DNA of 64,000 nucleotides from Acidobacteriota bacterium (GTDB lineage: Bacteria; Acidobacteriota; Vicinamibacteria; Vicinamibacterales; UBA823): the NCBI GenBank assembly GCA_002730525.1, contig PCAK01000010.1, positions 43,132-107,131 of the forward strand, given 5' to 3'. This document shows, in pieces, positions 11,368-44,464 of the stretch. Under the pieces are notes generated by a model. It was not told the DNA's origin, searched no databases, and saw nothing but the letters and a program-made list of their open reading frames with translations. Numbering within the stretch: position 1 is the stretch's first letter; each line of letters opens with the position of its first letter. A program made the translations under genes and the position numbers.

Positions 11368-11913
11368 ATGAGTGATCCGTCCGCAGGAACCACCGACCCG
11401 ACGCTCGAGTCGACAACGCCTCTCGAGGCGGCCTGGTACGCCGTCTGGACCAGGTCGCGGCACGAGCAGGTCGTGCGCGAGCAGCTGGCGCAGAAGCAGA
11501 TCGAAGCGTTTCTGCCCACCGTGACCCGATGGAGTCGGTGGAAAGATCGTAAGAAGAAGGTCGACTGGCCGCTGTTTCCCGGGTACTGCTTCGCCAAGTT
11601 CGATGCCTCGACGCGACTCACGGTGCTGAAGTGCGCCGGGGTCGTGAGCATCGTGTCGTTCGACGGCACGCTCGCGCCGATTCCCAGCCAGGAGATCGAC
11701 GCGATCCGCCAGCTGGTCGAGAGTGAGCTGCAGTACGACCCGTGCCCCTTCATGCACGAAGGGATGGTGGTCGAGGTCGTGCATGGGCCGCTGGCGGGCG
11801 TCGTCGGCCGGCTGGTGCGAAAGGGCGCGCATGCCCGCCTGGTGCTCTCGGTCGACCTGATCGGGCAGGCCGTGAGCGTCGACGTCGAGGCCGCCGATGT
11901 CCGACCCTACTGA
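11368..11913 (+). CDS. NusG paralog, UpxY/RfaH-type transcription antiterminator
   Basis: WYAVWTRSRHE, PLFPGYCF NGN domain, KOW VEVVHGPLAGVVG. Confidence 0.88.
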   Translation: MSDPSAGTTDPTLESTTPLEAAWYAVWTRSRHEQVVREQLAQKQIEAFLPTVTRWSRWKDRKKKVDWPLFPGYCFAKFDASTRLTVLKCAGVVSIVSFDGTLAPIPSQEIDAIRQLVESELQYDPCPFMHEGMVVEVVHGPLAGVVGRLVRKGAHARLVLSVDLIGQAVSVDVEAADVRPY

Positions 11914-12985
11914 ATCTCCCGCACGACCCGCTCACGACGTCAACCAGACGCAGGTCGGCGGTGTGACCCTGTCGCGCCCGTTCGGCCTGGCGCCGATGGC
12001 AGGGATGACCGACACGGCCTTCCGTCGTCTGGTCAAGCGCCAGGGCGGCTGCGGCCTGGTCGTGACCGAGATGGTCAGCTCGGAGGGCCTCGTCCGCGGC
12101 ATTGACCGCACGCTCGAGTTCGCCGAGTACACGGAAGAAGAGCGCCCCGTATCTATTCAGGTGTTCGGCGGCGATCCGGCCAAGATGGCGGCGTCGGCGG
12201 AGATCCTTGAATCGTTGGGCGCCGACATCGTGGACGTGAACATGGGGTGCCCCGTCCCGAAGATCGCCAAGCACAACGCGGGCTGCAGTCTGATGCGCGA
12301 CCCGGCGCAAGCCGCCACGATCATCGACGCGATGGTGCAGGCGGTGCACATCCCGGTCACCGTAAAGATGCGAGCGGGCTGGAGCGAAGACGAGATCAAC
12401 GCCCCCGAGCTGGCCCGGCGGGTCGAGGGTGTCGGCGCGTCGGCCGTGACCGTCCACGGACGCACCGCGAAGCAGTCGTATACCGGCCGGTCCGACTGGG
12501 GTCTGATCGGCGAGGTTGCGCGCGCGGTCGACGTCCCGGTGTTCGGCAGTGGCGACTGCGTTGAGCCCGCCGAGCTCGGCGACCGCGTGGCCGAGAGCGG
12601 TGCGGCCGGGGCGCTGGTTGGCCGGGGCGCGCTCAGGAATCCCTGGATCTTCGCGCAGGCCCAGGACCTGGCGGCTGGCCGGGCACCGCGTGCAGTGCCG
12701 CTCGAAGCTCGGGGCCGCTTTCTGCTGGACTATCTGGAGTTGCTGCTCGGCGAGGGCGTCGCAGAAGCCGACGGATTTCGGCACGCCCTGCCCGCGGCGC
12801 GCGAGGCGGCGCCGGCGCGGGGTCGCGACCGCTGGGTGGTCAACAAGCTGCGAGCCCTGGGGTCCTGGTACACCAAGGGCCTCGACAACGGGTCACATCT
12901 GCGCCAGCAGATCAATCAGGCCGAATCGATCGCCGAGCTGCGCGCGATCATTCAGGATTTCTTCTTCGACCCAGATCGGGCCTAG
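11897..12985 (+). CDS. dusB: tRNA-dihydrouridine synthase (DusB/NifR3 family)
   Basis: LAPMAGMTD, DVNMGCP, VTVKMRAG, VHGRT, GRGALRNPWIF. Confidence 0.9.
   Translation: MSDPTESPARPAHDVNQTQVGGVTLSRPFGLAPMAGMTDTAFRRLVKRQGGCGLVVTEMVSSEGLVRGIDRTLEFAEYTEEERPVSIQVFGGDPAKMAASAEILESLGADIVDVNMGCPVPKIAKHNAGCSLMRDPAQAATIIDAMVQAVHIPVTVKMRAGWSEDEINAPELARRVEGVGASAVTVHGRTAKQSYTGRSDWGLIGEVARAVDVPVFGSGDCVEPAELGDRVAESGAAGALVGRGALRNPWIFAQAQDLAAGRAPRAVPLEARGRFLLDYLELLLGEGVAEADGFRHALPAAREAAPARGRDRWVVNKLRALGSWYTKGLDNGSHLRQQINQAESIAELRAIIQDFFFDPDRA
12953..12970 (+). repeat. 18-bp inverted repeat, left copy (CAGGATTTCTTCTTCGAC)
   Basis: Exact reverse complement of 14372-14389; encodes QDFFFD at DusB residues 353-358. 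Confidence 0.95.
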
Positions 12986-13401
12986 CGCTTCCGGGGCGGA
13001 CGGCCACCCGGTGAGCGTTTCGCACCTCCCGACTGCCCGGCGGCCTTCTTTCCCGATAGGCTGGCGGTCTTCTTGTCCCGGCGGAACTTACCGGCCTTCG
13101 AAGCCCCCTTCTTCTTGGCGAATCGTGCTCGCGGATCCTCGTGCGTGCCGCCCGGCCGCCACTCACGGTCCCGCTTCGGTCCCGCGGCCGCCGGCCGCGC
13201 GCGCGGGTGACGGCGGGCCGCTTCGCGGGCCTCGGTTGGCGAGGGCCAGAGTCGTCCCCGCGCGAACCACATGAGTTCGGCCTTGGCGTCTTTCTTCCGG
13301 AGCTGATGGAGTGTCGGCATCAACTCCTCCCGGGTGGCCGATCGGAAAGACGTGGCGGTTCCGTCGAGGATGATCGTCCAGTAGGCGTAGCGTGGGGGCA
13401 T
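12982..13401 (-). CDS. Hypothetical protein with basic C-terminal tail
   Basis: Ordered aromatic-rich N-terminus (MPPRYAYWTIILDG...WFARGRLW), 10 nt downstream of the co-directional activator gene. Confidence 0.7.
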   Translation of the reverse strand: MPPRYAYWTIILDGTATSFRSATREELMPTLHQLRKKDAKAELMWFARGRLWPSPTEAREAARRHPRARPAAAGPKRDREWRPGGTHEDPRARFAKKKGASKAGKFRRDKKTASLSGKKAAGQSGGAKRSPGGRPPRKR

Positions 13402-13411
13402 TGTCGTGGCG

Positions 13412-14815
13412 TCAGGGTTGGAGCCGCTTCATCTTCTCGAGGAGCGTCGTGCGCTTCAGGTGGAGCAGGTCGGCAGCCAGGCGCTTGTTGCCGTCGGCGC
13501 GCCCGAGTGCCTGCCGGATCAGTTCGCGCTCGACGTCGTGCACGTAGCGTTCGAAGTCGAGGCCATCGTCGGGGAACGCGACGCGGACGCTCAGCCCCGG
13601 GTCGACGGCGGCCTGGATCTCCGGCGGCAGGTCGGCGGCCTCGATCTGCGTGCGGCCTTGACTGAACGCGAGTGTTCGCTCGATGACGTTCTCGAGCTGC
13701 CGGATGTTGCCCGGCCAGGCGTAGGCCATCAACTGCCGCATCGCTTCCTGCGACAGGCCGACGTCGGGCCGCGGTGGGACGAGTTCGCGTCCGAGTCGTT
13801 CGAGAAAATGTTGCGTCAGGAGCGGGATGTCGTCCCGTCGATCGCGGAGCGGCGGCAACGGAATCGGAATCACGTTCAGTCGGTAGAACAGGTCCTCCCG
13901 AAACGTGCCATCCGCGACGAGCTGAGTCAGGTCGGAGTTGGTCGCCGCGATGACCCGCACATCGATTTTGATCTGCCGCGTGTCCCCGATCCGCTCGAGT
14001 TCCCGTTCCTGCAAGACGCGCAGCAGCTTGGCCTGCAGGGCCGGCGTCATCGTGCCGACCTCGTCGAGGAAGAGCGTGCCACGATGGGCCTGTTCGAGCC
14101 GCCCCGGCCTCGATTCGACCGCTCCGGTGAATGCGCCGCGGACGTGGCCGAACAATTCCGCCTCGAGCAGCGACTCGGGAATGGCGCCGCAGTTCAGCGC
14201 GGCGAGGCGGTGGGCGCTGCGCGGGCTGTTGTGGTGAATGGCCCGGGCCACGAGTTCCTTACCGGTCCCGGTCTCACCGGTAATCAGAATGGTACTGTTG
14301 GTCGGCGCGATCATCTTGAGCCTCTCAAAGAGGTCGCGCATCACCTGGCTGAGGCCAACCAGGCCTTCGAAGTCGAAGAAGAAATCCTGCCGGTAGCGCT
14401 CCTCGAGCTGCGAGCGCAGGTAGGCGTTCTCGCTCTTCAGGCGCCGTTGTTCGAGCGCCGCCGTGAGAACGTGCAACAGCTCGTCGAACTGAAAGGGTTT
14501 GGTGATGAAGTCCGCCGCGCCGACCTTGATCGCCTCGACCGCACCCTTCACCGTGCCGAAGCCGGTCACGACGATCCCGACGATCTCCGGGTAGCGGTCG
14601 ATCGCCGCTTTCAGCACCTGGCTGCCGTCGACGCCGGGCAGCCTGAGATCGGTGACGACGACATCGAAGGCGAAATCCGCCAGTTTGGCGAGGGCCTGCT
14701 CCCCACTCTCCACCTGCGTGACGCTGTAGCCGTGGTCGGTCAGACGCTCGGCGGTCACCTCCCGCAGTGCCGCCTCGTCCTCGACGATCAGCAGATGTTT
14801 TTCATTTTCAGTCAT
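13412..14815 (-). CDS. Sigma54-dependent response regulator (REC-AAA+-Fis HTH; NtrC/FleQ-FlrA-like)
   Basis: REC (IVEDE, TDLRLP, ITKPF), GETGTGKE, GAFTGA, FLDEV, WPGNIRQLEN, C-terminal HTH. Confidence 0.95.
   Translation of the reverse strand: MTENEKHLLIVEDEAALREVTAERLTDHGYSVTQVESGEQALAKLADFAFDVVVTDLRLPGVDGSQVLKAAIDRYPEIVGIVVTGFGTVKGAVEAIKVGAADFITKPFQFDELLHVLTAALEQRRLKSENAYLRSQLEERYRQDFFFDFEGLVGLSQVMRDLFERLKMIAPTNSTILITGETGTGKELVARAIHHNSPRSAHRLAALNCGAIPESLLEAELFGHVRGAFTGAVESRPGRLEQAHRGTLFLDEVGTMTPALQAKLLRVLQERELERIGDTRQIKIDVRVIAATNSDLTQLVADGTFREDLFYRLNVIPIPLPPLRDRRDDIPLLTQHFLERLGRELVPPRPDVGLSQEAMRQLMAYAWPGNIRQLENVIERTLAFSQGRTQIEAADLPPEIQAAVDPGLSVRVAFPDDGLDFERYVHDVERELIRQALGRADGNKRLAADLLHLKRTTLLEKMKRLQP
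14372..14389 (-). repeat. 18-bp inverted repeat, right copy
   Basis: GTCGAAGAAGAAATCCTG on +; encodes QDFFFD at residues 143-148 of the activator, in the REC/AAA+ linker. Confidence 0.95.
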
Positions 14816-14908: not shown

Positions 14909-15002
14909 TCATTGGGAACGCGGCAGAGACGCCGTGAGGGGATCGGCGTCGCGAGATTGCAGCCCAACGTTGCAAGGCTCCGCGACGCCAACGAGCAAGA
15001 CC

Positions 15003-15218
15003 ATGATTGTCGACCGAAAGACCATCTCGATCATGAAGGCGTGTGAGCTGGTGGGCGTCAGCCGCCGGACGATCTACAACTGGATCGCCAGCGGCAAGGT
15101 GGAGTACGTCCGCACGGCGGGCGGCTCGGTGCGAATCTTCGTCGACACGTTGTGGCGAGATCCGTCCGGCACCTCGAAAGCCGCGATCTGGCCAGAAACC
15201 GCCCGCAAAGAGGCCTGA
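15003..15218 (+). CDS. Excisionase-like (MerR-type HTH_17) DNA-binding protein
   Basis: ISIMKACELVGVSRRTIYNWIASGKVEYVRTAGGSVRI is a typical Xis-family wHTH. Confidence 0.88.
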   Translation: MIVDRKTISIMKACELVGVSRRTIYNWIASGKVEYVRTAGGSVRIFVDTLWRDPSGTSKAAIWPETARKEA

Positions 15219-15726: not shown

Positions 15727-15741
15727 TGGTACCTCTGTTGC
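15727..15741 (+). promoter_or_regulatory. Sigma54 -24/-12 promoter of fliA
   Basis: TGGTACCTCTGTTGC = GG-N10-GC with TTGC, 100 nt upstream of the fliA ATG. Confidence 0.7.
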
Positions 15742-15840
15742 GATGAAGGGCCTCGCCACCGCGGCTGACCGGGTTCGGCCGGCGTGTCTCCAGCGTCGTC
15801 CCGTTCCGGTGCTCCGCGAGTGGCGAGGAGGGATCTCGAC

Positions 15841-16764
15841 ATGCCGCAGCAGCAGACTGTCACGGCTGACCAACAGCACCGTATCGAGGCCGGCGTCCCG
15901 TTCGTGGAGGCCCTGGCCCGACGCGTCGCGGCGTCGATGCCGCACTCGATCGATATCGGGGATCTGGTGCAGGACGGGATGATCGGCTTGATCGACGCCG
16001 CGCACCGGTTCGACGCGGGGCGGGGCATCAAGTTCGAAACATTCGCCGAGCGCCGCGTGCGCGGCGCCATGATCGACGCGCTGCGCCGCGACGCATGGCC
16101 GCGGGGCATCCGCCGGGTACGCCGCGAACTCGAGGCGGCGCGCGAGTCGCTCCGGCGAGAGCTTGGCTGCGAGCCGTCGATGGCCGACCTGGCCAAGCGC
16201 GTCGGTTCCGACGAGACTCGGCTCGGTCGCACGATCGTGCGGATCAACACGATCGAGTCGACCTCTCCCCTGGCGACGTCAGACTCGATCGACGAGGCGA
16301 GTCTGCCACCGGTCATGGTGCCGTCGGAGCCGCCATCGCCTGACAAGGCGCTGGAGCAGTGTGAGATCAAGGGCCGCGTCCGCGACGCCATCGCCTCGCT
16401 ACCTCCGCGCGAGCGGAAGGTGATCGGCCTGTACTATTTCGGCGAAGTCACGATGAAACGGATCGGTGCCGAGATCGGAGTGAACGAGTCACGAGTGTCG
16501 CAGCTGCACGCGCGGGCGATCCAGCGGCTACGGAAGGCGCTCGCGCAGCAGTTCGAATCGGATGCGGCCGCGGCGAACGCCCTCGGGGCCGTGCTGGTCA
16601 CGATGCCGACACGGGCCACGCGCGCGTCCCGCACCTCGGCGGCCAAGGTGAAGACACCCCGCGGCGTCGTGCTGCCGTATCAGAAGCGGAGTCGACCGAA
16701 GTCGGCGCGCCCGGCCACCCGGCCGTCGGTCGCGGCCGAGGCGCCCCGCGCCGTGGCGCGGTAG
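15841..16764 (+). CDS. fliA: FliA/WhiG family RNA polymerase sigma-28 factor
   Basis: DLVQDGMIGLIDA, FETFAERRVRGAMIDALR, IGVNESRVSQLH; GAGGAGG RBS before ATG 15841; extra basic C-terminal tail. Confidence 0.9.
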   Translation: MPQQQTVTADQQHRIEAGVPFVEALARRVAASMPHSIDIGDLVQDGMIGLIDAAHRFDAGRGIKFETFAERRVRGAMIDALRRDAWPRGIRRVRRELEAARESLRRELGCEPSMADLAKRVGSDETRLGRTIVRINTIESTSPLATSDSIDEASLPPVMVPSEPPSPDKALEQCEIKGRVRDAIASLPPRERKVIGLYYFGEVTMKRIGAEIGVNESRVSQLHARAIQRLRKALAQQFESDAAAANALGAVLVTMPTRATRASRTSAAKVKTPRGVVLPYQKRSRPKSARPATRPSVAAEAPRAVAR

Positions 16765-20911: not shown

Positions 20912-21071
20912 AACCCCAGAACTCACTTGTGTTGATAATGGCTGGCGTCGGGCTGGACGGCGAGGGCTAGGCGCGACGATGGAATTTGGTGGGCCCAAGT
21001 GACAGAGGAGCAACGCCGCCCTCGTCGGGCAGAACTAGCCAGGCGTGGCAACACAAGTGAGTTCTGGGGTT
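20912..21071. mobile_element. 160-bp MITE-like element with perfect 23-bp terminal inverted repeats
   Basis: AACCCCAGAACTCACTTGTGTTG (20912-20934) / CAACACAAGTGAGTTCTGGGGTT (21049-21071); interior also self-complementary. Confidence 0.6.
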
Positions 21072-21080
21072 AACCTCACC

Positions 21081-22877
21081 GTGACCTCCCGATCCCAGCC
21101 GGCACGGGCTGGCGAGCACGAGACCCTCACGGCGCTCTTCGACCTCGGGCGTCAGGTCACCTCTGTCCTCGACGTTGGCGAACTCCTCCGCAAGCTTCCG
21201 GACCTGATCCGGCGCCTGATCCCGTTCGACGCGTTTGCGGTGTACTTCCTCGATTCGAAGCGGCGCACGCTGCGCATCGCGCATGCCGAAGGCTACTCCG
21301 AAGAGGCAGTGAGGACCGTTCGCCGCCGCGTCGGCGATGGGTTTGTTGGCGCCGCCGTGGCCGACGAGCAAGCCATGCTCGTGAATGACCTGGCCGCGGA
21401 TCGGCAGCGCGACGCGGCGGTGCCTGAGGCCAGGTCGGGGCTGGTGGTGCCGCTACTGCACAAGGCGAAGGTCATCGGTGCGCTCACGCTGCTCAGCCAC
21501 GAGCGCGGTCAGTTCGACGAAAACGACCTGGCGATCCTGCGCCAGTTCGGCGCTCACGTGGCGGTGGCGCTCGCGAATGCCCGGATGTTCGAGCGGGAAC
21601 ATCGGGACTCTCAGACGTTCGAGCTGCTGGCCGAGATCGGTCGGGACGTCACCTCGATTCTCGATCTCGATGAGCTGCTCGCGCGGATCGCGCATCTCGT
21701 GCGCCGCATCATCGACTACCGCACCTTCGGCATTCTGCTCCTAAACGAGCGCACCGAGGAGCTCGAAGCGAAGATTGCGGTGGAGTACGGCGATGCGCGA
21801 ACGATGCCCAGCTTCAAGCTGGGCGAGGGCCTGGTGGGCTTCGCGGCGCTCCACAAGCAGCCCGTGCTCGTCCCCGACACCGCGGCTGACGGGCGATACC
21901 TGAGCTATGTGCAGGACGTGCGGTCAGAGCTGGTGGTGCCGATCCTGTCGCAGGACAAGTGCCTCGGGGTCTTCGACTTGCAGAGTCCAGAACTCGATGC
22001 GTTCGACAAGCGCTACGTCGGGGTGCTGACGCTGCTGGCCAGTCAGGCCGCCGTGGCGATCGAAAACGCCCGGTTGTATCGGAAAGTTCGGGCCAACGAA
22101 TCGCGGCTGCGCAAGGAGGTGCGGCTGGCGCAGCGCGTGCAGGTCGGTCTGCTGCCGGCCGAGCTACCGATCAGGCCCGGCGTCGAGGCGGCCGCGCGTT
22201 TCGAGCCGGCTCGCGAGTTGGGCGGAGACTTCTACGAGGTGATGGCGCCCGAGGCGCCACTGTTCGTGGCTGCGGTGGGCGACGTGTCCGGCAAGGGTGC
22301 GGCGGCTGCGCTCTACGGCGCCTTTGCCGGCGAACTCGTTCGCTCCCGCACGTTCCGGCGACGCTACCTCCCGGAGCAATCGAGTCCGGCCACCGTGCTG
22401 GCCTCGATCAACACGATTCTCCACGAGCGTCAGCTGGAGGGCTACTTCTGCGCGCTGTGCTACGCCGCGTTCGACTTCGATCGGGGCGCCGTCGTCGTCG
22501 CCAACTCCGGACTCCCGTTCCCGATCCACAGTGGGGCCGATGGGACCCGGCAGTTCGGGGGGCCGGGCATTCCACTGGGGTTGTTTCCCGGCTCAGACTA
22601 CGACGAGACGCGTCTGCCGTTCGCGCCCGGCGACGTCTTTGTCTTTTGCACCGACGGGATCTTCGAGGCCAACGATGACGCGGGCGACGAGTTCGGGGCT
22701 GAACGGCTGCTCCGCGTCGTCGAGCGGGCGCGCGACTTGCCCGCCCGGACGATCGTCGACGCGATCTTCGAGGCGGTGACCGAGTTCCACGGCGGCGCCC
22801 AGCAGGCCGACGACATGACGGCGGTGGTCTTGAAGATCAGTACGCCGTCAGGTAGCGCTGCATCTCCCAGGGCGTGA
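21081..22877 (+). CDS. GAF-GAF-SpoIIE (RsbU-type PP2C phosphatase)
   Basis: Two GAF repeats (AVALANARMF, AVAIENARLY), LGGDFY, VGDVSGKG, CTDGIFE, DDMTAVV; GTG 21081 chosen because 21045 lies inside the IR element. Confidence 0.9.
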   Translation: MTSRSQPARAGEHETLTALFDLGRQVTSVLDVGELLRKLPDLIRRLIPFDAFAVYFLDSKRRTLRIAHAEGYSEEAVRTVRRRVGDGFVGAAVADEQAMLVNDLAADRQRDAAVPEARSGLVVPLLHKAKVIGALTLLSHERGQFDENDLAILRQFGAHVAVALANARMFEREHRDSQTFELLAEIGRDVTSILDLDELLARIAHLVRRIIDYRTFGILLLNERTEELEAKIAVEYGDARTMPSFKLGEGLVGFAALHKQPVLVPDTAADGRYLSYVQDVRSELVVPILSQDKCLGVFDLQSPELDAFDKRYVGVLTLLASQAAVAIENARLYRKVRANESRLRKEVRLAQRVQVGLLPAELPIRPGVEAAARFEPARELGGDFYEVMAPEAPLFVAAVGDVSGKGAAAALYGAFAGELVRSRTFRRRYLPEQSSPATVLASINTILHERQLEGYFCALCYAAFDFDRGAVVVANSGLPFPIHSGADGTRQFGGPGIPLGLFPGSDYDETRLPFAPGDVFVFCTDGIFEANDDAGDEFGAERLLRVVERARDLPARTIVDAIFEAVTEFHGGAQQADDMTAVVLKISTPSGSAASPRA

Positions 22878-38616: not shown

Positions 38617-39591
38617 ATGGCGGTCATCACCTACCTCGACGCGATCAGCCAGGGGCTCCGCGATGAAATGCGGCGCGACGAGAACGTGATCGTTCTCGGC
38701 GAGGACATCGCGGTCTTCGGCGGCGCGTTCAAGGTCACACGCGGATTTCTCGAGGAGTTTGGCGCGGATCGGGTCATCGACACGCCGATCAGCGAGAGCG
38801 GATTCACCGGCGCCGCGTGCGGTGCGGCGGTCGAAGGCCTGCGGCCGGTGGTCGAGTTCCAGTTTGCCGACTTCATCGCGTGCGCGTTCGATCAGATCGT
38901 CAATTACGCCGCCAAGAACTACTACCGCTGGGGGATTCCGATGCCGGTCGTCTTTCGCGGCCCATCGGGCGGCGGCTTCAGGGGCGGACCGTATCACTCG
39001 CAGAATCCCGAAGCCTGGTTCACGCATGTGCCTGGCCTGAAGGTCGTGCAGCCGGCGACGCCCTACGACGCCAAGGGGTTGCTGGTGGCGGCGATCCGCG
39101 ACAACAATCCGGTCATCTACCTCGAGCACAAGCACCTCTACCGACGGATCAAGGAGGAGGTGCCGGAGGACGACTACGTCGTGCCGATCGGCGTGGCGGA
39201 AGTGAAGCGCGAGGGCTCCGACCTGACGATCGTCACGTACGGCGCGATGGTGCACGAGTCGCTGGCCGTGGCCGAGCGACTGTCGCGGGAGGGCGCCGAG
39301 TGCGAGGTGGTCGATCTGAGGAGCCTGAGCCCGCTGGACCGCGACGCGTTCCTGACGAGCGTCAGGAAGACCGGCCGGGCGCTGGTCGTGCACGAGGCGC
39401 ACCTGACCGGCGGCTTCGGCGGCGAGGTGGCTGCGATCATCGCCGAGCAGGCGTTCGACGCCCTCGACGCGCCGGTGACCCGGGTGGCCGCGCTGGACGT
39501 GCCGTCGCCGTTTGCGGCGCAGCTCGAAGACGCGATGCTGCCGACCGAGGAGAAGATCTACACTGCCGCCAGGGACGTCCTGGAGTATTGA
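38617..39591 (+). CDS. 2-oxoacid dehydrogenase E1 beta
   Basis: GEDI..FGG, DTPISE, EFQFADF, HSQNPE, DAKGLL. Confidence 0.93.
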   Translation: MAVITYLDAISQGLRDEMRRDENVIVLGEDIAVFGGAFKVTRGFLEEFGADRVIDTPISESGFTGAACGAAVEGLRPVVEFQFADFIACAFDQIVNYAAKNYYRWGIPMPVVFRGPSGGGFRGGPYHSQNPEAWFTHVPGLKVVQPATPYDAKGLLVAAIRDNNPVIYLEHKHLYRRIKEEVPEDDYVVPIGVAEVKREGSDLTIVTYGAMVHESLAVAERLSREGAECEVVDLRSLSPLDRDAFLTSVRKTGRALVVHEAHLTGGFGGEVAAIIAEQAFDALDAPVTRVAALDVPSPFAAQLEDAMLPTEEKIYTAARDVLEY

Positions 39592-44071: not shown

Positions 44072-44464
44072 TCACGCCGCCCAAAAGGTTTTCACCGGAT
44101 ACTTCTGGATGTTCTCGTCGGGCGTGACGATCGTCAGGTCGTGCTCGATCGCCTGCGCGATCAGCAGCCGGTCGAACGGATCGCCGTGGTGCGGCGGGAG
44201 CTTCGAGAGATGGGTCAGCGTACCCTCCTCGAGGCCGAGCGGTGCGATCTGGTGGCGCTCGCGTTGGCGGGGGATGTAGGCGCCGGGTTCCTCCGGCAGG
44301 TCGAGGCGGCCCAAGCGGTGCTTCAGGAGGATCTCGCGCAGCGAGACGACGCTCAGCGCGACGTCATTGGCCGGCGTCCGGATCGCGTCGACGACCTGCT
44401 CGGGCAGAACGGCGCTGCCGGTGATGTACCAGAGGAACGGCGTCGTATCGAGCAGGAGGTTCAT
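44072..44464 (-). CDS. vapC: VapC PIN-domain toxin
   Basis: LLLDT..FLW, SLREI, HGDPFDRLLIAQA, VTPD. Confidence 0.9.
   Translation of the reverse strand: MNLLLDTTPFLWYITGSAVLPEQVVDAIRTPANDVALSVVSLREILLKHRLGRLDLPEEPGAYIPRQRERHQIAPLGLEEGTLTHLSKLPPHHGDPFDRLLIAQAIEHDLTIVTPDENIQKYPVKTFWAA

Follow-up and report, generated by a model that had tools for sequence, protein, structure and literature searches.

Template-switch mutations, as interpreted with the four-point model or as quasipalindrome mutations, are those in which part of a descendant sequence matches, in reverse complement, ancestral DNA close by. According to the available parts of the reports that describe them (PMC7954356, PMC7202029, PMC8604942), such events leave the donor unchanged, create perfect inverted repeats in descendants and can alter proteins; in yeast, repeats that undergo switching are described in the part available as having short spacers (PMC8604942). 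Invertons of the PhaseFinder/PhaVa kind are a second class of system associated with inverted repeats, and their intragenic and partially intergenic forms are present across many phyla, as stated in the accessible part of one report (10.1101/2023.03.11.532203). Sigma-54 activators of the NtrC1/DctD class have a helical linker within the inactive dimer interface and are activated by removal of the receiver (REC), to go by the portions available of two papers (PMC10696123, PMC4878744), and one of these, in the same portion, describes negatively regulated activators becoming constitutive once REC is deleted (PMC10696123).

The window, the whole stretch of 64,000 nucleotides analysed here, carries an exact 18-bp inverted repeat shared by dusB and the convergent gene for a sigma-54 activator. 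As in template-switch mutations, one copy matches neighbouring ancestral DNA in reverse complement, and the event has left the donor as it was while producing a perfect inverted repeat. Unlike quasipalindrome mutations, the case is a pure 18-nt insertion with no homogenized pre-existing quasipalindrome and, unlike a short-range template switch, it has donor and acceptor 1.4 kb apart in different genes, with blunt junctions and a 5-nt match beside the junction. The locus resembles invertons (10.1101/2023.03.11.532203, in its accessible part) in its exact intragenic repeat pair around ∼1.4 kb and its in-frame flipped products, and differs from them in that no flipped molecule is seen in contigs, no invertase is nearby, the repeat is unconserved and one arm is recent. 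The activator shares the REC, linker, AAA+ and HTH_8 architecture of the NtrC1/DctD class, and its best solved match is Aquifex NtrC1 (4l4u/1ny5; E 5e-100); unlike NtrC1, it has a linker lengthened by six residues at its C-terminal end and reads GFG where NtrC1 has GHG. We consider, with a probability of about 0.85, that the repeat arose by a single lineage-specific inverted templated duplication that is now fixed in a marine acidobacterial species, and it has the look of a scar left by mutation and since fixed, not of a working DNA switch.

Table 1. Features of the dusB/activator locus (positions in the window).
Feature	Position	Strand	Basis
dusB (tRNA dihydrouridine synthase B), 362 aa	11897..12985	+	PF01207, E 5e-75; TIGR00737 DusB equivalog
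Donor arm, native 3' end of dusB, QDFFFD codons	12953..12970	+	Exact match; tail alignment with relatives
Conserved hypothetical gene between the repeat arms, 139 aa	12982..13401	-	No Pfam or NCBIfam match
Sigma-54-dependent response regulator, REC - long linker - AAA+ (GAFTGA) - HTH_8, 467 aa	13412..14815	-	PF00072, PF00158, PF25601, PF02954
Palindromic TTCGAA, ancestral target site, abutting the insertion	14366..14371	.	Seen in relatives; has TTCGA in common with the donor arm's end
Recipient arm, 18-nt insertion, QDFFFD (residues 143-148), reverse complement of donor	14372..14389	-	Orthologue/metagenome comparison
HTH_17/excisionase-family DNA-binding gene, divergent from activator	14934..15218	+	PF12728, TIGR01764
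Sigma-54-type promoter TGGTACCTCTGTTGC upstream of FliA/WhiG-like sigma gene (15784-16764)	15727..15741	+	One-mismatch match

The inverted repeat and the provenance of its arms

The 18-mer CAGGATTTCTTCTTCGAC and its reverse complement (Table 1) match at 18 of 18 positions across a spacer of 1401 nt, and both arms are read in frame as QDFFFD, near the very end of DusB (residues 353–358 of 362) and within the activator (residue 143 onwards of 467). The earlier note had described this repeat, its spacing and the shared hexapeptide, all of which we could confirm. Homology stops at 18 bp, the flanks being identical at only 5/40 and 12/40 positions, and no further notable inverted repeats were found between the two arm sites. 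None of 100 shuffled windows contained two matches of the 18-mer, and the window gave no Rfam match. A search for further genomic copies, as the note had proposed, returned these two arms as the only exact occurrences, together with two versions carrying two mismatches, on contigs C18 and C31, inside unrelated genes.

Across the genome, 16 inverted-repeat pairs of at least 18 bp with spacers of 100–5000 nt were counted; Markov simulations gave 4, 4 and 7 such pairs and a mirror control gave 4, so that an 18-bp inverted repeat is by itself weak evidence. The non-randomness of the dusB/activator pair rests on one arm being, base for base, a lineage-specific insertion. Elsewhere, on contig G000:C35, 20 bp of a conserved DUF305 motif recur in inverted form in the hypervariable linker of the neighbouring gene; this is a possible second event and hints that such copying recurs in the genome. 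Two other long repeats (C35 12770/16786 and C23 137187/139153) have both arms inside genes with Pfam matches and look fortuitous.

The donor arm belongs to a well identified gene, TIGR00737 scoring 302.9 bits against an equivalog cut-off of 293.3. In aligned DusB tails, x-F-F occupies the place of the donor arm in 26 of the 27 relatives with a complete tail (D-F-F in three), and a DNA-level comparison of these tails shows different codons in the relatives, so the inserted copy matches the present lineage's own dusB. The contig of the closest relative (L073/P0002; 94% protein and 92% DNA identity) stops short of the dusB tail.

The activator arm has a different history. It lies between CGG (R142) and TTC (F149), and taking out the six residues restores ERYR/FEGLVG, the form found in all 29 orthologues from related genomes; the suggestion that QDFFFD is a precise six-residue insertion at the REC/AAA+ junction is thereby borne out. 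The proposed check for the hexapeptide in orthologous activators came back empty (0/29); of the 120 best database homologues, 119 are without the insertion, and none of the 80 metagenome activator loci contains the 18-mer. The spacing from the anchor to GxS is 17 residues in 116 of the 118 best homologues that have the anchor and 23 in the window's protein alone; among the metagenome loci, linker spacing is 17 in 75/80 and at most one residue longer in the others. Orthologues are mostly 460–463 aa long. In the closest relative the target site is uninterrupted, TACCGG being followed directly by TTCGAAGGC, as in the window's flanks, with codons CGC TAC CGG TTC GAA GGC across the site; TTC GAA is also present in five of the seven relatives compared at the DNA level. 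The two arms therefore differ in kind: that in dusB is native, and that in the activator is a clean 18-nt insertion. Neither is conserved as a repeat arm at the shared locus, where the recipient is absent from relatives and the dusB tails differ in DNA. Copying ran from dusB into the activator, and within one lineage.

Of the 29 dusB loci of relatives, 19 have a homologue of the enclosed gene in the interval separating dusB from the activator, encoded on the same strand as the activator. Wherever the genes were found, their order is dusB(+)/hypothetical(-)/activator(-), which places the enclosed DNA in the ancestral orientation.

The stretch is present in natural populations: 20 runs from nine studies hold 0.96–1.00 of its sampled words. 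Logan contigs bridge the recipient arm in 4/4 runs, from four studies, in the reference orientation and with no indel. In X19 a single contig spans 12000–15300 with seven SNPs, five of them synonymous and none within either arm. No inverted joint was seen in the contigs of X1, X13, X19 and X20, which as contigs drop rare variants; a contig break in X20 at 12964–12990 is away from the branch point expected of an inversion (12970/12971).

A probable templated inverted copy and its proposed route

The inserted bases match, in reverse complement, a nearby sequence that is ancestral at the donor site, and they are missing in outgroups whose target flanks are otherwise unchanged, as seen in the closest relative. 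The second of two readings offered in the earlier note, a one-off templated insertion, is therefore the one we retain, with the native dusB tail as donor and a precise, private 18-nt insertion as recipient. In the species ancestor, 18 nt of the 3' end of dusB would have been copied once, in inverted form, into the convergent activator gene 1.4 kb away, with the boundary of the ancestral codons R142 and F143 as its exact entry point. Because the genes are convergent, the inverted copy is sense in its recipient and, because it landed in phase 0, the same six residues are encoded; QDFFFD would add length at the end of the REC–AAA+ linker. The likeliest route would follow the four-point model: a polymerase copying the activator, either at a replication fork or in repair synthesis, would have switched to the dusB strand as its template and then returned. 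The nearby TTCGA/TTCGAA match may have aided pairing of the two sites. The insert may simply be tolerated, or may alter how tightly the receiver represses the ATPase, and would have no role as a recombination site.

Two observations count against the template-switch route. Classical template switching usually leaves consumed microhomology, and here neither junction shares a single base in either direction, TTCGA lying adjacent and kept on both sides. The microhomology invoked previously in support of a template switch does not hold in this respect: the ancestral TTCGAA is intact, the donor TTCGAC was copied whole and both junctions are blunt. When microhomology-primed switching is followed step by step by hand, in either direction, the expected insert is 12 or 13 nt long and uses up TTCGA, as against the 18 nt observed. 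The donor–acceptor distance of 1401 nt is also long, exceeding the short spacers typical in yeast (PMC8604942). Okazaki fragments are of comparable length. GC skew around the site (+0.03) is compatible with a rightward fork, a weak indication that fits the dusB case and not the second candidate, so it was set aside as a guide to fork direction. Capture of a fragment by NHEJ offers no easy alternative, since the genome lacks Ku (PF02735).

Competing explanations

The same blunt junctions could, very improbably, be the footprint of two inversions. In a first inversion, dusB would have been cut with a stagger of 18 nt and the activator bluntly, so that the 18 nt were duplicated in inverted form at both ends; a flip back between the new arms would then restore the genes and leave the extra copy in place. 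Such a history accounts for the junctions, for the coincidence of the insert with the repeat and for arms that flank the segment. In Drosophila, staggered-break inversions reportedly leave inverted duplications, and the present locus resembles those breakpoints in having short inverted duplicates with blunt junctions at both ends of a segment. It differs from them in being bacterial, in involving 18 nt and in having its segment in the ancestral orientation, for which a reverting inversion is needed. Two rare events and a deleterious intermediate with both genes disrupted are required, 18 bp is very short for homologous recombination and the inverted arrangement was found in no relative.

The other reading in the earlier note, a phase switch, is highly improbable. 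As an active inverton, the 18-bp arms would be recombination sites between which 12971–14371 flips, swapping the gene ends and freeing the activator from phosphorylation control. The repeat is exact, and inversion in silico reproduced the products that had been predicted, namely in-frame ORFs of 677 aa (DusB–AAA+–HTH with no receiver) and 152 aa (receiver only, ending in the DusB tail), with the enclosed 139-aa gene flipped along intact. The fused product could be active, given the constitutive activators obtained after REC deletion (PMC10696123, part available), intragenic invertons have the wide distribution noted above (10.1101/2023.03.11.532203, part available), and a rare flipped form could escape contigs, which lose low-frequency variants. 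Against this, the contigs of 4/4 runs show the reference orientation only, and at neither arm is there a joint or a switch of strand. The 99.2%-complete genome gave no match to serine recombinases (PF00239); its ten tyrosine recombinase matches (PF00589) include none on contig C10, to which the window belongs, and the sole IS110/Piv-type match (PF02371) is a fragment situated where contig C20 ends. The repeat is private, every relative being without it, and one of its arms was copied recently from ordinary coding DNA, in which a pre-existing recombinase site is not expected. The adjacent 'Xis-like' HTH gene, taken earlier as a hint of an inverton, fails as such: it is kept divergently next to the activator in 27 of 29 relatives that lack the repeat, and so is a conserved core neighbour, context rather than a switch component. 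A search for DusB–AAA+ fusions, which is a weak one, gave three longer DusB proteins of 40–45% identity, none with the AAA+ motifs sought. None of the best 120 proteins listed in a search for shorter activators contains QDFFF; these end at 333 bits, above the score estimated for the 152-aa product, which makes the list uninformative on that product.

It is just as doubtful that the locus is a nascent two-gene inverton, in which host recombination would rarely flip 12971–14371, replacing the receiver by DusB and leaving a free receiver domain. If true, this would be a newborn phase switch just after its origin, with an unregulated activator at the sigma-54 promoter of the FliA/WhiG-like sigma gene.

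Chance or convergence, with an unrelated six-residue activator insertion happening to match the DusB tail, is barely credible. Identical hexapeptides with biased codons can yield inverted repeats of 18–19 bp, as in the window's other long repeat (39219/44123), where DLTIVT looks native in two unrelated genes, and about a third of the genome's repeats of this size are expected randomly; the present match, however, coincides at both ends with a lineage-specific indel, and its GC content (8/18) is the lowest of the 16 long repeats in a genome of 67% GC. The probability of an assembly or binning artefact is negligible even though the source genome is a 45-contig draft, because contigs from four independent studies carry the insertion, including X19, a run that carries no flag as a possible source and is set apart by its seven SNPs; the 18-nt insertion is genuine.

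The activator linker and significance

The protein that carries the insertion has the complement expected of a sigma-54 activator, with REC, AAA+ with GAFTGA and a Fis-type HTH, and rpoN is present on contig C36. Against the closest relative its dN/dS is 0.09 (0.016 in REC), values indicative of a gene still under purifying selection. In 26 of 30 activator loci the motif TGGYAY-N5-TTGC is present as a single copy in the syntenic position, which makes the promoter upstream of the FliA/WhiG-like sigma gene a likely target of the activator. Linker length is nearly invariant, so that six fixed additional residues are unexpected if strictly neutral. AlphaFold2 models of the activator (mean pLDDT 69.5, a helix at 110–155 running through the insert, pLDDT <50 at 133–154) and of the 94% identical relative (mean pLDDT 72.4, helix ending at 140, pLDDT <50 at 132–148) are of such low confidence at the linker end that they say nothing reliable on the effect of the insert.

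The locus offers a clean and datable natural case in which a protein has gained residues through an inverted templated insertion acting over a kilobase range, with donor, target site and outgroup all visible. It is also a caution for the prediction of invertons from inverted repeats only, as an exact, in-frame, intragenic repeat can be a scar. For the family, it provides a natural test of the tolerance of the REC–AAA+ linker in an NtrC1-like activator, with a variant six residues longer fixed in an ocean-wide population.

The inverted repeat and its direction of copying

[quoted passage not shown] The repeat ends sharply (flank identity 5/40 and 12/40), and none of 100 window shuffles gave two matches. 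A genome-wide search for more copies (3.3 Mb, 45 contigs, 99.2% complete), as that note suggested, found no third exact 18-mer and two matches with two mismatches, both within unrelated genes.

Features of the window and related repeats
Feature	Position	Strand	Details
UpxY/RfaH-like NusG paralogue	11368-11913		directly upstream of dusB, 17-nt overlap with its start; NF033644, 117.6 bits (cut-off 100)
dusB	11897-12985	+	PF01207; TIGR00737 above cut-off; first arm at 3' end
First arm	12953-12970	+	CAGGATTTCTTCTTCGAC
Sigma-54 response regulator (activator)	13412-14815	-	convergent with dusB; REC, AAA+ and HTH_8 domains; contains second arm
Second arm	14372-14389		exact reverse complement of first arm
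Excisionase-family HTH gene	14934-15218		divergent from activator
Sigma-54-type promoter	15727-15741		TGGTACCTCTGTTGC; 43 nt upstream of FliA/WhiG-like sigma gene
FliA/WhiG-like sigma factor	15784-16764		TIGR02479, 188.5 bits, just below cut-off (189.6)
Hairpin	20912-21071		exact 23-bp inverted repeat, 114-nt spacer, intergenic gap
Other hairpin-family copies	contigs C23 (two), C5, C36, C44, C24		near-full-length
19-bp inverted repeat	39219-39237 / 44123-44141		exact; 4885-nt spacer
20-bp inverted repeat	contig C35, 20994-21013 / 21470-21489 (locus L153, 1995-2014 / 2471-2490)		exact

Inverted repeats alone are poor evidence in this genome, because its count of pairs of at least 18 bp separated by 100-5000 nt is 16, where simulations gave 4, 4 and 7 and a mirror control gave 4, and because one such pair stems from a native-looking peptide. 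This is the 19-bp repeat, whose arms both encode DLTIVT in two unrelated genes, presumably, by motif resemblance, transketolase/E1-beta-like and PIN-like; it looks like a chance product of a common peptide and codon bias. It is the coincidence with an indel that makes the 18-bp pair real. The 23-bp repeat forms a near-perfect hairpin of ~160 nt (-108.8 kcal/mol, z -10.35) with no Rfam match, belonging to a dispersed family with six more copies at 78-92% identity.

The six residues are missing from the activator orthologue of every one of 29 related genomes (64-83% identity), RYR being followed directly by an FEGLVG-like stretch, and the window's DNA carries exactly 18 additional bases between CGG and TTC. 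The closest relative (P0002/L073; 461 aa, 94% protein and 92% DNA identity) reads CGC TAC CGG TTC GAA GGC, the window's flanks with nothing in between. Among the best 120 of 7887 database homologues, QDFFFD is confined to the window's own protein, and among the 118 that have the ENAYLR anchor, its spacing to GxS is 17 in 116 and 23 in the window's protein only. The 18-mer is absent from all 80 metagenome activator loci, where the spacing is 17 in 75, 18 in two, 17 by eye in two missed by the regular expression, and without an anchor in one. Two of these loci, L144 and L149, are one residue longer (FEDGIVG, FDQGIVG) at nearly the same point where the linker meets AAA+, the sole other length changes seen there.

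Of the orthologue comparison proposed in the earlier note, the activator side was thus negative and the DusB side positive: x-F-F aligns in 26 of the 27 relatives whose tail is complete (L050 is unaligned at the arm; two loci truncated by a contig end were left out), in codons that differ from the window's. Because the insert is absent from the activator's relatives and x-F-F is kept in DusB with other codons, this lineage's own dusB is the donor and the activator the recipient.

Origin of the insertion

We infer that a template switch as described by the four-point model would account for the event; in that model a nearby same-sense strand is copied backwards before return to the next base (PMC7954356). 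Copying would have reached point 1 in the activator, jumped to the nearby same-sense strand, taken 18 nt backwards from the donor and resumed at the next activator base. Two points are atypical: the donor lies 1.4 kb off, whereas template switching favours short spacers (PMC8604942), and no microhomology was consumed. The earlier note's one-off templated insertion was essentially right, but not its TTCGA microhomology at the junction: TTCGAA, the ancestral sequence, and TTCGAC, from the donor, are both retained, side by side, and every microhomology-primed scheme tried predicts an insert of 12-13 nt rather than the observed 18. The shared TTCGA may have assisted in bringing these sites together, though it is not itself the junction.

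A two-step route, in which the new arms left by a staggered-break inversion then serve to flip the segment back, likewise reproduces the blunt junctions, but calls for two events, each rare, with a harmful state between them. Capture by NHEJ is unlikely, since no Ku was found in the genome. The insertion is a further example of an already known type of mutation.

The 20-bp pair on contig C35 may be another inverted templated copy in this genome. One arm, conserved in five of five relatives, belongs to a DUF305 gene, where it encodes MVEELFA; the other falls within a P/E/A-rich, hypervariable linker of the adjacent gene, itself conserved and 643 aa long, and there ARLGEEFLH is found in this lineage only. 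The case gives a hint that such events recur, with products that survive only in tolerant linkers.

Orientation in natural populations

In 20 public metagenome runs (nine studies, 2017-2025; marine, seawater and hydrothermal-vent samples), 0.96-1.00 of the stretch's sampled words are present. Orientation was checked in Logan contigs of four runs from four studies (X1, X13, X19, X20); such contigs lose rare variants and may hence miss a low-frequency flipped form. A single contig spans 12000-15300 in X1 and in X19, and overlapping contigs cover it in X13 and X20. All four bridge the recipient arm in the reference orientation without an indel, and at neither arm was a joint or a change of strand reported. 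X19, a run with no possible-source flag, differs from the window by seven SNPs, five synonymous and none in the arms. Because contigs from four studies carry it, the insertion is neither private to one genome bin nor the assembly artefact that had been considered.

Inversion in silico yields ORFs of 677 and 152 aa, as the earlier note predicted, yet its reading of an active inverton or phase switch is unsupported. Besides the uniform orientation in these contigs, a serine recombinase (PF00239) is lacking from the genome, none of its ten tyrosine-recombinase matches lies on the window's contig, and its one IS110-type match is a fragment that lies where contig C20 ends. A site-specific recombinase would also need to recognise newly copied, ordinary coding sequence. 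The excisionase-family HTH gene, which that note called Xis-like, keeps its divergent place beside the activator in 27 of 29 relatives that have no repeat and is a core neighbour rather than a directionality factor. The three long DusB relatives found, a weak test for fusions, carry none of the AAA+ motifs searched. Wherever these genes could be located in a relative, they follow one arrangement (dusB +, hypothetical -, activator -); the hypothetical gene, located in 19 of 29 loci, invariably lies on the strand opposite to dusB, so that the enclosed DNA is in its ancestral orientation.

The activator and its likely target

The sigma-54-type promoter is the activator's likely target: 26 of 30 activator loci have a single TGGYAY-N5-TTGC, in the syntenic position, so that the activator, the excisionase-family HTH (HTH_17) gene and the sigma gene form a conserved module. 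The genome encodes rpoN. Since no flagellin (PF00669) was found in this 99.2%-complete genome, a flagellar role is doubtful and, for the sigma factor, improbable.

With dN/dS against L073 of 0.09 overall and 0.016 in REC, the activator gene is not decaying. Its best solved relative is Aquifex NtrC1, in whose class REC alpha5 continues into the linker as a single long helix that stabilises an inactive dimer, and removal of REC gives an active protein (PMC4878744, PMC10696123). The insert lies at the C-terminal end of the REC-AAA+ linker, where the two AlphaFold2 models, with and without it, have pLDDT below 50 and give no guidance on its effect. If helical, the six residues would, by calculation, add ~9 Å and 240 degrees of rotation, and such a longer, rotated linker might loosen repression.
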